Below are positions 2,565 through 46,944 of a stretch of 64,000 nucleotides of DNA, in pieces. Location: NCBI GenBank assembly GCA_021735045.1, contig JAIPHU010000004.1, forward strand, positions 2,929 through 66,928, given 5' to 3'. The notes under the pieces were generated by a model, which searched no databases, was not told the origin of the DNA, and saw only the letters and a list, made by a program, of their open reading frames with translations. The DNA comes from Candidatus Omnitrophota bacterium. Lineage in GTDB: Bacteria; Omnitrophota; Gorgyraeia; Duberdicusellales; 4484-171. A program made the position numbers and the translations under genes. The stretch's first letter is position 1; every line of letters starts with the position of its first letter.

Positions 2565-2587
2565 GTTTATTAGTAGTTTATTAGGTT

Positions 2588-2661
2588 GCGCCCGTAGATC
2601 AATTGGATAGATCGTTTGGCTACGGACCAGAAGGTTGCAGGTTCGACTCCTGCCGGGCGCA
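2588..2661 (+). tRNA. tRNA-Arg (anticodon ACG)
   Basis: The acceptor GCGCCCG pairs with CGGGCGC. The anticodon loop is cuACGga, the T-arm is gcagg-TTCGACT-cctgc, and no CCA is encoded. Confidence 0.85.
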
Positions 2662-2663
2662 TT

Positions 2664-2756
2664 GTTCGACTCTTCCGACGCTTTGATTTTGAAAAAAATC
2701 AAAGGTCGGAATCCCGACCGAAACGAAGTGGAGCGTCGGGACTGCCGGGCGCACCA
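2664..2756 (+). repeat. duplicated tRNA-Arg 3' fragment (gttcgactc...ctgccgggcgcaCCA) interrupted by a 69-nt palindromic mini-element (2673-2741)
   Basis: Direct repeats of the tRNA T-loop and 3' acceptor sequence flank the element. The element runs TTCCGACGC...GCGTCGGGA with an internal GTCGGAATCCCGAC hairpin. Confidence 0.6.
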
Positions 2757-32173: not shown

Positions 32174-32532
32174 GGGGGTGAATGGACTCGACCTAAAAGG
32201 CGATGCGAAAAGGAGCATGCCGAGGATGTGAGTTGCCTGCGATAGTGGTACTTGCAAAAAATTAAATGCAGAAAACACATTTAATACCACTCCTGCTTAC
32301 GCTGTAAGTTAAGGAGGCTCTTCTACTTTTCTGCCTCGGAAAGTATAAGAGTTCATTTATGAGGCTCGGAGTAAGCTTTTGCTTTTCGGGTTTACTCTTA
32401 AAACTAAGGAAAGCTGCTTCCTGGTAAATCCTGCCTTTTGGAGCTATCAGGAAAAAGATAAACAAAAGGCTAAGCATGTAGAATCTTTTTGCTGAAATTT
32501 TAGGGACGCGGGTTCGATTCCCGCCACCTCCA
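32174..32532 (+). ncRNA. ssrA: tmRNA (SsrA)
   Basis: The 5' GGGGGUG pairs with 3' CACCUCC including the G3:U wobble. A GGACUCGAC D-loop analogue follows, and the 3' T-arm is GCGGG-UUCGAUU-CCCGC plus discriminator A. No CCA is encoded. Confidence 0.8.
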
Positions 32533-32576
32533 TTTTTTCGACCTATCCGAAAAATCAGTAAACCCGAAACACATTC

Positions 32577-36055: not shown

Positions 36056-36718
36056 ATGTTGTATCTTTATTTAGATGAAAGCGGTGATTTAGGTTTTGAT
36101 TTTGTTAACAAAAGGCCTTCTAAGTTTTTTACTATATCTATTTTAGTTATAAGAGGCGCAAAGAAAAGAAGACAGGTAGCTAAAAGTGTAGAAAGAACCA
36201 TTAGAAAAAAATTAAATCCGAAAAGCAAGCGGAGGAGAATGGTTCAAGAATTAAAAGGCACATCAACAACGTTAGAAATCAAAGAGTATCTATATAAAAG
36301 AATAAAGAAGATAGATTTTTCTATTTATAGCATAACCTTAAATAAAAGGCGAGCTTATAGCTATTTAATTAAAGATAAATCAAGAATTTATAATTTTATA
36401 GCACGCAGTATTCTAGATAAAGTTGATTTTTCTGATACCAAAAATAGAGTTATTTTGACAATTGATAAGAGCAAGAGTAAGCCTCAGATTAAAGAATTTA
36501 ATGATTATATTTATAACCAATTGGAAGCTAAGATAGATCCTAAAGTTTCTTTATATATAGAGCATGCAGATTCTTGTGCAGATAAATGTTTAAACGTGGC
36601 GGATTTATTTAGCTGGGGAGTTTTTAGAAAACATGAGAGAAAGGATTCTCTATGGTATGATTTATTTGCAGAAAAAGTTGAATTTGATCAAATATATTTG
36701 CTCCAAAATAAAAAATGA
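36056..36718 (+). CDS. DUF3800-family protein
   Basis: The N-terminus MLYLYLDESGD is the hallmark DE motif of DUF3800. Confidence 0.65.
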   Translation: MLYLYLDESGDLGFDFVNKRPSKFFTISILVIRGAKKRRQVAKSVERTIRKKLNPKSKRRRMVQELKGTSTTLEIKEYLYKRIKKIDFSIYSITLNKRRAYSYLIKDKSRIYNFIARSILDKVDFSDTKNRVILTIDKSKSKPQIKEFNDYIYNQLEAKIDPKVSLYIEHADSCADKCLNVADLFSWGVFRKHERKDSLWYDLFAEKVEFDQIYLLQNKK

Positions 36719-36851
36719 GCGGACCCTGCGAGTTGAGCGTTAAAGCTTTTGCCAACCAGATGGAAGGGAACACTTTAACAACTCGCAACGGAATTACCGC
36801 TCAAGTTAAATATACAATATGGGGATGACAAAGTCAAGTTATTTTTGAACT

Positions 36852-46378: not shown

Positions 46379-46452
46379 ATAAGTTTTTGACAACAAAGAC
46401 CTTGCTTTTCTAGAGATAAGTTGCTATAATTTTATGCTTTTTTGAATAGAAT

Positions 46453-46567
46453 GGGCCTGTAGCTCAGCCTGGTTAGAGCAGTCCCGACGTTCGCATTTCA
46501 TGCTCAGTTGGGATTCCGACTTCTGGCCTACAGTTTAACGGCAGCCAGAACGTCGGAACTGACTCAT
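46453..46567 (+). pseudogene. partial tRNA-Met (5' half through anticodon) interrupted by a 77-nt palindromic mini-element (46482-46558)
   Basis: GGGCCTGTAGCTCAGCCTGGTTAGAGCAG, then the insert, then CTGACTCAT. This matches the intact tRNA-Met at 46848 exactly; the 3' half is missing. Confidence 0.65.
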
Positions 46568-46587
46568 TTCGGTTTTAGGTAAGTTGA

Positions 46588-46857
46588 ATGGCTTATGTTT
46601 ATATCTTGCAAGATAAGCAAAACGGAAAATTTTATATCGGCAGTACTAATAATGTTGAATCTAGATTCAAGCAACACAAAAGTAAAAAACACCATTCAAG
46701 TAAATGCTTAACAGATCCTGAAATTGTGTTTAAGCAAAAGTTTGATAGTTTAAAAATCGCAAGAAAAATAGAGCTAAGGTTAAAGAAATATAAACATAAA
46801 GATTTCATTGAAAAAATAATTAGGGACGGTATTATAAAGAAAATGCAGGGCCTGTAG
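46588..46857 (+). CDS. small GIY-YIG nuclease-domain protein (YhbQ/UPF0213-like)
   Basis: YVYILQDKQNGKFYIGSTNNVESRFKQH matches the GIY-YIG motif. The stop codon TAG lies inside the 5' end of tRNA-Met. Confidence 0.65.
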   Translation: MAYVYILQDKQNGKFYIGSTNNVESRFKQHKSKKHHSSKCLTDPEIVFKQKFDSLKIARKIELRLKKYKHKDFIEKIIRDGIIKKMQGL

Positions 46858-46922
46858 CTCAGCCTGGTTAGAGCAGCTGACTCATAATCAGTTGGTCGGA
46901 GGTTCAAATCCTCCCGGGCCCA
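46848..46922 (+). tRNA. tRNA-Met (anticodon CAU; elongator-type, or possibly tRNA-Ile2 if lysidinylated)
   Basis: The acceptor GGGCCTG pairs with CGGGCCC. The anticodon loop is cuCAUaa and the T-arm is ggagg-TTCAAAT-cctcc. There are no three G-C pairs in the anticodon stem, and no CCA is encoded. Confidence 0.85.
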
Positions 46923-46944
46923 CGTTAAAAAAAATAGGAAATTA

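Follow-up and report, generated by a model that had tools for sequence, protein, structure and literature searches.

A small palindromic element physically coupled to a stand-alone GIY-YIG nuclease gene, with a preference for tRNA-gene DNA

In a stretch of 64,000 nt from a Candidatus Omnitrophota bacterium (contig JAIPHU010000004.1 of assembly GCA_021735045.1; the whole stretch is called the window here) a broken copy of a tRNA-Met gene carries a 77-nt insert, and a small gene for a stand-alone GIY-YIG nuclease lies between this copy and the intact tRNA-Met. The genome was assembled from a metagenome, and a protein encoded nearby is 100% identical to one annotated as Candidatus Omnitrophica. 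The insert belongs to a family of small palindromic elements, here called M, which is widespread, mobile and apparently undescribed. M moves as a discrete insertion without target duplication, prefers the DNA of the tRNA D-arm and is physically coupled to the nuclease gene. We incline on balance, if only slightly, to the view that the insert is a copy of a non-autonomous element that a partner nuclease mobilises and that host repair copies. An earlier note, made from the sequence of the window, had described 29 nt of tRNA-Met, the 77-nt insert at 46482-46558 and part of the anticodon arm, and all three are located correctly. What it took for unrelated sequence behind the insert turned out to be a 20-nt leader followed by the open reading frame (ORF) of the nuclease; this gene, overlooked at the time, is the key to the tRNA-Met copy.

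A family of paired hairpins

The same note had proposed that the insert, when reverse complemented, is homologous to an element after tRNA-Arg, with shared termini and a variable first hairpin. The alignment agrees: the reverse complement of 46482-46558 aligns with 2673-2741, the two have TTCCGACG, GTCGGAATCCC(G/A)AC and CGTCGGGA in common, and their first hairpins differ by compensatory changes. A near-identical hairpin had also been noted, which holds for the shared sequence and not for the structure, since GTCGGAATCCCRAC is better explained as the feet of two adjoining but separate hairpin units. On the plus strand the units of the 77-nt copy are 46482-46513 (TCCCGAC..GTTGGGA) and 46514-46558 (TTCCGAC..GTCGGAA), while the 69-nt copy divides a 21-nt repeat of the tRNA-Arg 3' end. 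Chance is excluded as the source of both copies. The core motif has 3 matches in the window against 0.21 expected, a number that 0 of 100 shuffles reach (two of the three matches are both strands of the palindromic core at 2705-2718), CCGAC-N(3-33)-GTCGG has 3 matches against 0.11 expected, and folding z-scores for M copies are -4.7 to -6. The pattern search found no further copy of M in the 64-kb window.

Scans of species-representative genomes and of metagenomes, one each, yielded 164 loci (below, loci including those of further relatives have L numbers). A pattern search with a size range of 30-100 nt over 166 sources, that is these loci, one viral locus and the window, found 128 copies, mainly in Omnitrophota, in Saccharibacteria and other Patescibacteria, and in Planctomycetota. 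These copies, with the comparisons of filled and empty sites given below, bear out the suggestion that the two copies in the window represent one mobile family. M is made of two hairpin units of the same kind, arranged as an inverted pair, each with a 7-bp foot YYCCGAC/GTCGGRR, a one-base bulge and a variable, covarying stem; the complete element reads [C/T]TCCGAC-G-stem-loop-GTCGGA[A/G] directly joined to [T/C]CCCGAC-stem-loop-C-GTCGGG[A/G]. Among 108 unique canonical copies the first base pair of the variable stems is formed in 89% and 92%, compared with 47% and 60% in shuffles, and 3-5 pair types are used at these positions. The bulge pair G8/C-8 is kept in 93 of the 108, with A:T in 3 and A:C in 7. 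The termini of M are able to pair with each other, giving a junction-like alternative fold, and this pairing is conserved and does not covary. A cloverleaf with paired termini was set against the two hairpins and rejected; covariation favours the hairpins, and G8:C-8 is conserved, not covarying. Mismatches within the hairpins are G.T or A.C in ratios of 13/15 and 17/11, a balance from which neither strand can be named as the strand of action.

The earlier note could assign the element to no described class, and the searches agree. Rfam gave no match to M at gathering thresholds or at E<=10, and no description was found in the literature searched, in which coverage of subscription journals was limited. 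An origin from phages was considered and rejected, as two DNA patterns found no true M in IMG/VR and the viral protein matches cover only the N-terminal GIY-YIG motif.

Mobility and insertion sites

The insertion sites of M are polymorphic, filled in some genomes and empty in others. In a close relative, the transfer-messenger RNA (tmRNA) gene (L009, 1454-1890) corresponds to the uninterrupted tmRNA gene of the window (32174-32535) with a clean 76-nt M added, without duplication, just after the tag reading frame; no second tmRNA copy was seen in the L009 locus. In the gene for tryptophanyl-tRNA synthetase (TrpRS) a 39-nt M coincides exactly with a 13-residue gap against solved TrpRS structures (PDB 6dfu), and a LepA gene has a similar unaligned insert. 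Target duplication as an intrinsic property of M was rejected because M lies in the tmRNA gene and in TrpRS without one. M is also tolerated in frame inside proteins. Stop-free stretches 200 codons or longer run through 31 copies, in frames giving VPT..VGIPT..VG or VPT..RDSD..VG peptides, and 21 of the 31 copies have lengths divisible by three; besides TrpRS and LepA, the hosts include SMC, NusA, GyrA, RpoA, ParB and L25. Other copies are intergenic, often after terminators, or nested inside one another (L023, L039, L080/L118), and both orientations occur. The flanking bias is weak, with G at -1 in 65% of copies and C (50%) or A (33%) at +1; no fixed tetra- or pentanucleotide was found 5' of M.

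Both insertions in the window can be compared with empty sites in relatives. Three loci (L175-L177) share the gene order thioredoxin, tRNA-Met, zinc-ribbon with the window and have the promoter directly before an uninterrupted tRNA-Met, without the cassette. The window therefore carries an insertion of 395 nt at tRNA-Met, in which M and 9 nt of tRNA are followed by the leader, the nuclease gene and tRNA nt 1-29 for a second time; the site is also filled in L021 and L173. The arrangement at the empty sites places the fragment at 46453-46481 beside the native flank. A ttgctataat/ttgttataat motif also precedes the uninterrupted genes of L175-L177, and the extended -10-like motif of the window, which the list from a consensus promoter scan of the window does not include, now stands upstream of the broken 5' fragment. 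From here the native promoter would now read through fragment, M, nuclease gene and tRNA in this order. At tRNA-Arg, L179 (775-860) has an uninterrupted gene with an encoded CCA, followed by the flank that in the window follows the distal partial copy, so that the window is longer by 92 nt, made up of 12 nt from the tRNA 3' end, 'tt', 9 nt from the T-loop, and M. The working tRNA-Arg of the window therefore encodes no CCA (2654-2663; it is followed by ttg). The CCA on the partial copy had suggested a retro-copy of a mature tRNA, which was rejected because the empty site of L179 encodes the same CCA before the same flank. Both inserts are circular permutations of 'tRNA fragment-M-tRNA fragment-linker'.

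The tRNA-Met and tRNA-Arg genes are general hot spots, because relatives carry other small inserts at the same genes. These inserts contain neither M nor an ORF, measure about 135 nt at tRNA-Met and about 185 nt at tRNA-Arg, and each has behind it 17-20 nt that repeat the 3' end of the tRNA. They may represent a different mini-integrative element that uses the T-loop.

Association with tRNA genes

A tRNA gene is found no more than 50 nt away from 18 of the 128 copies, where randomly placed positions in these loci would give 4.2. Flanks resembling tRNA accompany 38 copies, and a tRNA match spans the insertion point in 33 (about 26%), of which 21 are inserted at tRNA nt 12/13 (TAGCT|CAG). The tRNA association that the earlier note proposed is thus not incidental, and it is only partial, as about 70% of copies have no tRNA-like flank. 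A majority of copies unlinked to tRNA was what the note had named as a sign that the association is incidental, and this is largely what we find, in the intergenic, nested, tmRNA and protein-gene copies; yet the preference for tRNA is real. M is a promiscuous palindromic element, of the kind of the repetitive extragenic palindromic (REP) sequences and the Rickettsia palindromic elements (RPEs), that prefers tRNA and is not strictly bound to it.

For 27 of the 33 tRNA-embedded copies an intact cognate tRNA is present in the same locus, in 26 cases 10-513 nt away; the others lie where a contig ends, have their best tRNA match in a different locus, or belong to a decayed pseudo-tRNA-Val (L015). 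The distal arm of an M-bearing tRNA copy continues into the native flank and the proximal arm is short (4-35 nt). Linkers resemble copies of native flank only weakly (L013 and L133). Excision of M in silico gives near-full-length or full tRNA (L061, L140, L015) only where an intact twin adjoins.

Two loci with repeated tRNA pieces deserve mention. The decayed tRNA-Val-like gene (L015, 2429-2665), directly after a GIY-YIG gene and an intact tRNA-Val, contains three M, in the D-loop, the anticodon loop (33/34) and the T-loop (55/56). In L003 (3800-4290) an intact tRNA-Gly is preceded by tandem units of tRNA-Gly nt 1-33 plus about 100 nt with a hairpin, one unit with M and one without, and the locus also has single CCGAC hairpins. 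Some assemblies end exactly at M or at tRNA repeats (L174, 1-85; L178, 1-180; L052; L155), which suggests that M and tRNA repeats break short-read assemblies at tRNA loci.

The nuclease gene and its coupling to M

Among the ORFs within 300 nt of M, only the GIY-YIG family recurs, at 20 loci; the family next in number is present at 4. Upstream CCGAC hairpins accompany at least 19 of the 25 distinct GIY ORFs, and of these 25, 19 abut a tRNA gene on the same strand and 9 have their stop at the TAG of the tRNA. In most of the GIY genes M lies 0-30 nt upstream of the start codon, and the partner proteins measure 87-90 aa. The cassette consists of a tRNA 5' fragment, M, a few cognate nucleotides, the nuclease ORF and the intact tRNA. 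It occurs with tRNAs for Lys, Met, His, Thr, Pro, Arg, Asp and Val, and a third, 5'-truncated M-bearing tRNA copy is often found downstream (L021, L061, L055, L158, L128, L172). Four homologues that came from a protein similarity search alone, in Giovannonibacteria, Saccharibacteria and two Omnitrophica, show the same layout. The association of M with the nuclease gene is shown by this arrangement, from which a role of the nuclease in moving M is inferred.

The 89-aa protein has a PF01541 match and conserved V4 Y5 I6, Y16 I17 G18, R26, H30 and E62; Y5, Y16, G18, R26, H30 and E62 identify it as a GIY-YIG catalytic domain. No Asn is found among the conserved columns of the family, which comprises 1,867 representatives at E<=1e-10, nearly all of 85-130 aa. 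In the PDB the sequence of the 89-aa protein comes closest to 1zg2 and 1ywl (E=0.02-0.04), which are UPF0213 proteins of the stand-alone type. An AlphaFold2 (AF2) model (predicted local distance difference test, pLDDT, 85.9) has as its best folds UPF0213 1zg2 and Slx1 7cq3 (TMq 0.68, root-mean-square deviation 1.6), with E-values of 0.004 or above, and matches these ahead of I-TevI and UvrC. The predicted fold is therefore probably nearest to the structure-specific nucleases UPF0213 and Slx1, the E-values of sequence and fold being weak.

In the window the ORF runs into the intact tRNA-Met, taking its stop TAG from tRNA nt 8-10 (U8-A9-G10), and its 3' end contains a promoter-like sequence that ends 13 nt before the tRNA. 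The position of the stop, together with this site, suggests that expression of the nuclease may be tied to transcription and processing of the tRNA. AT-rich, TATA-like codons occupy the matching position in other cassettes. Four members of the family (P0004, P0006, P0014, P0021) have C-terminal tails, for example GPIAQW and GAHSSVVRAGDS, that are the translated 5' end of a tRNA. Many members are called with N-terminal extensions of 20-60 aa (P0283-P0428), which may be gene calls that read through the open frame of M. Fourteen nucleotides of the leader in the window (gtaagttgaatggc) are found again in L140. The second commonest neighbour of M is a YraN/UPF0102-like ORF, a predicted endonuclease, at 4 loci (L035, 3664-4035, and three others), whose recurrence may simply reflect shared gene order.

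Relation to known systems

In form and copy behaviour M is closest to the doublets of REP sequences and REPINs. Like M, REP sequences, bacterial interspersed mosaic elements (BIMEs) and REPIN-RAYT systems combine a short imperfect palindrome with a bulge and a foot that is conserved; they form inverted doublets, are numerous, frequently follow terminators, and belong with a single small nuclease-type gene, present in one copy and with repeats beside it. They differ in having an HUH Y1 enzyme and a GTAG head, whereas M has a GIY-YIG hydrolase and a YYCCGAC foot; M is also often intragenic, prefers tRNA-gene DNA and has its nuclease gene wedged 5' of tRNA genes. No RAYT or HUH gene recurs beside M among the ORFs within 300 nt, whole genomes not having been searched. 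In its residence in frame in proteins and in tmRNA M is closest to the RPEs, palindromic selfish DNA that lies in frame in housekeeping proteins and in the tmRNA gene without destroying the host gene. These elements, which Ogata and co-workers are said to have described in 2000 and 2002, reportedly insert in frame into protein and RNA genes and measure about 100-150 nt. M is set apart by its size (39-100 nt) and by its hosts (Omnitrophota, Patescibacteria and Planctomycetota, not Rickettsia), and we know of no mobilising enzyme for RPEs, whereas M has an associated nuclease gene.

The palindrome-associated and miniature inverted-repeat transposable elements (PATEs and MITEs) derived from IS200/IS605 resemble M in having hairpins at both ends and inserting without target duplication. 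They have a fixed 5' tetra- or pentanucleotide and a TnpA Y1 partner, unlike M, near which no TnpA-like ORF recurs. Classical MITEs share inverted-repeat termini with M (TTCCGACG/CGTCGGGA); M differs from them in having no flanking duplication. Phage T4 SegB is a free-standing GIY-YIG homing endonuclease gene in a tRNA cluster (PMC2330249). Such genes, and 'collaborative homing' by an intron together with an endonuclease gene next to it, share with the cassette a GIY-YIG gene beside tRNAs, presence/absence polymorphism and a separate insertion (M) at a possible cleavage site. However, the cassette encodes a bare 89-aa catalytic domain without a C-terminal DNA-binding domain, probably nearer to Slx1/UPF0213 than to I-TevI, its target tRNA is kept by duplication and not by splicing, and its setting is chromosomal, not phage.

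As in integrative elements that target tRNA genes, the inserts with M replace part of a tRNA and leave an intact gene together with a displaced partial copy by the native flank. They differ from integrase-type elements in having no integrase, in measuring only 81-395 nt, in replacing 5' halves as often as 3' ends, and in the interruption of the displaced copy by M; no tyrosine or serine recombinase gene is present in the 395-nt and 92-nt inserts, which contain only the GIY-YIG ORF or no ORF. At 184 nt (PMC13011429), even the shortest group I intron of a tRNA is far longer than M, and tRNA introns, whether of group I or of the archaeal bulge-helix-bulge type, interrupt the functional copy, whereas tRNA-embedded M is mostly found in copies beside an intact cognate (27/33). 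The attC sites of integrons have GTTRRRY boxes and an IntI partner; the boxes of M are CCGAC/GTCGG and no integrase recurs nearby. M with its cassette thus fails a defining feature of each known system, having no HUH enzyme, target duplication, DNA-binding domain or integrase.

How the element may move

M inserts as a unit without target duplication, with a preference for ..G|C/A.. junctions and a hot spot at TAGCT|CAG, in the conserved D-arm DNA of tRNA genes. If the nuclease does mobilise M, it would recognise the hairpin feet, extruded as a cruciform or exposed in single-stranded DNA, and would cut at junctions of the element or the target, after which host break repair or recombination would copy M, and the gene when adjacent, into the target. 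Only harmless insertions would then be kept: intergenic copies, copies of a length divisible by three in proteins, the tolerated tmRNA site and, at tRNA genes, redundant partial copies beside an intact one. The products retained at tRNA genes would be duplications in circular permutation, with one tRNA left intact. If a small intermediate bearing a tRNA fragment interrupted by M integrated in the Campbell manner, by crossing over in the longer arm, the 5', 3' and triple arrangements would all result.

A number of points weigh against this explanation. GIY-YIG enzymes hydrolyse DNA and to our knowledge have no strand-transfer or ligation chemistry, so that every joining step must be borrowed from the host; and arms of 12 nt are poor substrates for recombination of the RecA type. 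For about 80% of M copies there is no nuclease gene close by, two distant GIY homologues lie beside tRNAs without M within 220 nt (L071, L133), and the tRNA fragment upstream in L166 belongs to a different tRNA from the one downstream. The varying length of the proximal arms does not imply a single cut geometry, and the non-M inserts with tRNA 3' repeats in relatives mean that some partial copies may pre-date M. Targeting of hairpin loops failed its control and was rejected, with 35% of insertions in loops compared with 39% of random positions; striking loop insertions are nonetheless seen in L026, L038 and three loops of the L015 pseudo-tRNA.

The missing strand-transfer chemistry, and the many copies without a GIY gene nearby, would be expected if M were of the REP/PATE type and were moved in trans by an HUH transposase (IS200/IS605 TnpA or RAYT) encoded elsewhere, the GIY-YIG gene being an independent selfish gene that also favours tRNA loci. 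The bulged imperfect hairpins in inverted pairs and the precise insertion without target duplication fit as well, being hallmarks of HUH-mobilised elements (IS608, REP/RAYT). We think this unlikely, as it leaves unexplained why GIY-YIG is the sole recurring ORF family near M and why M is placed so close to the start codon even in GIY genes found independently of M. M also has no conserved tetra- or pentanucleotide on its 5' side, where only the G at -1 is biased, and no GTAG-type head, and its hairpin mismatches have no strand bias.

Another way to account for the tRNA link is survivorship only: unrelated integrative elements would leave partial tRNA copies in which M happens to land, and the nuclease would have no functional tie to M. 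The non-M inserts that relatives carry at their tRNA-Met and tRNA-Arg genes, flanked by 17-20-nt repeats of the tRNA 3' end, the M-free partial tRNA-Gly copy of L003, and the insertion of M without any duplication elsewhere all agree with this. However, at tRNA-Arg in the window only 'tt' separates the intact gene from the M-bearing repeat, which leaves no plausible remnant of such an element, M-bearing 5' fragments with linkers of 10-25 nt recur at many tRNAs, and the spacing between M and the start codon of the nuclease is too regular for chance. We therefore regard this account as quite improbable. That M acts as an RNA and is not mobile DNA, either as a small tRNA or tmRNA intron or as a structured 5' leader regulating the nuclease, is very improbable: its excision in silico can restore tRNA genes, it interrupts the one tmRNA gene seen in L009 and is part of the transcribed leader of the nuclease gene, but the M-bearing tRNA copies have an intact copy alongside, no ribozyme or intron family of Rfam matches even at E<=10, M in proteins is read through in frame with lengths biased to multiples of three, which would be needless if it were spliced, copies occur after terminators and in both orientations, and wobble-type mismatches show no strand bias.

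Returning to mobilisation by the nuclease, we would tentatively extend this explanation, as a possibility, to the proposal that M and the 89-aa protein form a new class of prokaryotic mobile element, in which a minimal GIY-YIG nuclease, Slx1-like and specific for structure, would mobilise cruciform-forming hairpin doublets by cleavage and host repair, and which would have colonised the genes of tRNAs, structured RNAs and essential proteins across phyla.

Significance

Small palindromic repeats (REP, RPE, MITE) are common, and we know of a mobilising enzyme for only some of them and of none linked to GIY-YIG. The single, consistent gene partner makes the movement of M directly testable with an 89-aa protein and a 45-80-nt substrate. 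Were the nuclease to mobilise M, M would become the first selfish DNA of the palindromic 'protein-coding' kind for which an enzyme is identified. For the annotation of streamlined uncultured bacteria, M explains inserts of 13-18 aa in housekeeping proteins, broken tRNA copies beside intact ones, probably also contig breaks at tRNA loci, a tRNA gene without an encoded CCA, and short ORFs that read into tRNA genes.

Feature coordinates and a further match in the window

Table 1. Positions of the features at the two insertion sites in the window, and of related insertions in other loci.
Feature	Location	Strand	Basis or remark
Presumed native tRNA-Met promoter, extended -10-like TGCTATAAT	46422-46430	+	read from sequence
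Orphan tRNA-Met 5' fragment, nt 1-29	46453-46481	+	identical to 46848-46876; joined to native upstream flank
M element, 77 nt	46482-46558	- (canonical orientation, TTCCGAC first)	alignment, motif, folding
Short proximal arm of broken copy, tRNA-Met nt 30-38 (ctgactcat)	46559-46567	+	identical to 46877-46885
Leader, 20 nt, with AGGT ribosome-binding-like site before nuclease ORF	46568-46587	+	read from sequence
Stand-alone GIY-YIG nuclease gene, 89 aa	46588-46857	+	ORF; Pfam PF01541, E=3.7e-13
Promoter-like TTGAAA-16-TATTAT in 3' end of nuclease ORF	46808-46835	+	consensus match only, 10/12 positions
Intact tRNA-Met (CAT)	46848-46923	+	ARAGORN; Rfam tRNA, 72.3 bits
Intact tRNA-Arg (ACG)	2587-2661	+	3' 12 nt come from inserted DNA; CCA no longer encoded
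Short proximal arm (gttcgactc, T-loop) of partial tRNA-Arg copy	2664-2672	+	sequence repeat
M element, 69 nt, hairpin units 2673-2711 and 2712-2741	2673-2741	+	alignment, motif, folding
Native tRNA-Arg 3' end (ctgccgggcgca) with encoded CCA	2742-2756	+	matches L179 into downstream flank; displaced by 92-nt insertion
Small inserts without M	L175 1202-1350; L176 1059-1195; L178 1-115; L180 and L181 658-860		
M in frame in housekeeping genes	L110 3468-3506 (TrpRS); L071 9780-9824 (LepA); L006 2215-2268 (SMC); L065 1942-1995 (NusA); L132 2064-2102 (GyrA); L135 1606-1650 (RpoA)		13-18 added residues

The window also has a match to the Rfam family DUF3800-V RNA, unrelated to M, on the minus strand at 36712-36808 (68.6 bits; gathering score 37.4).

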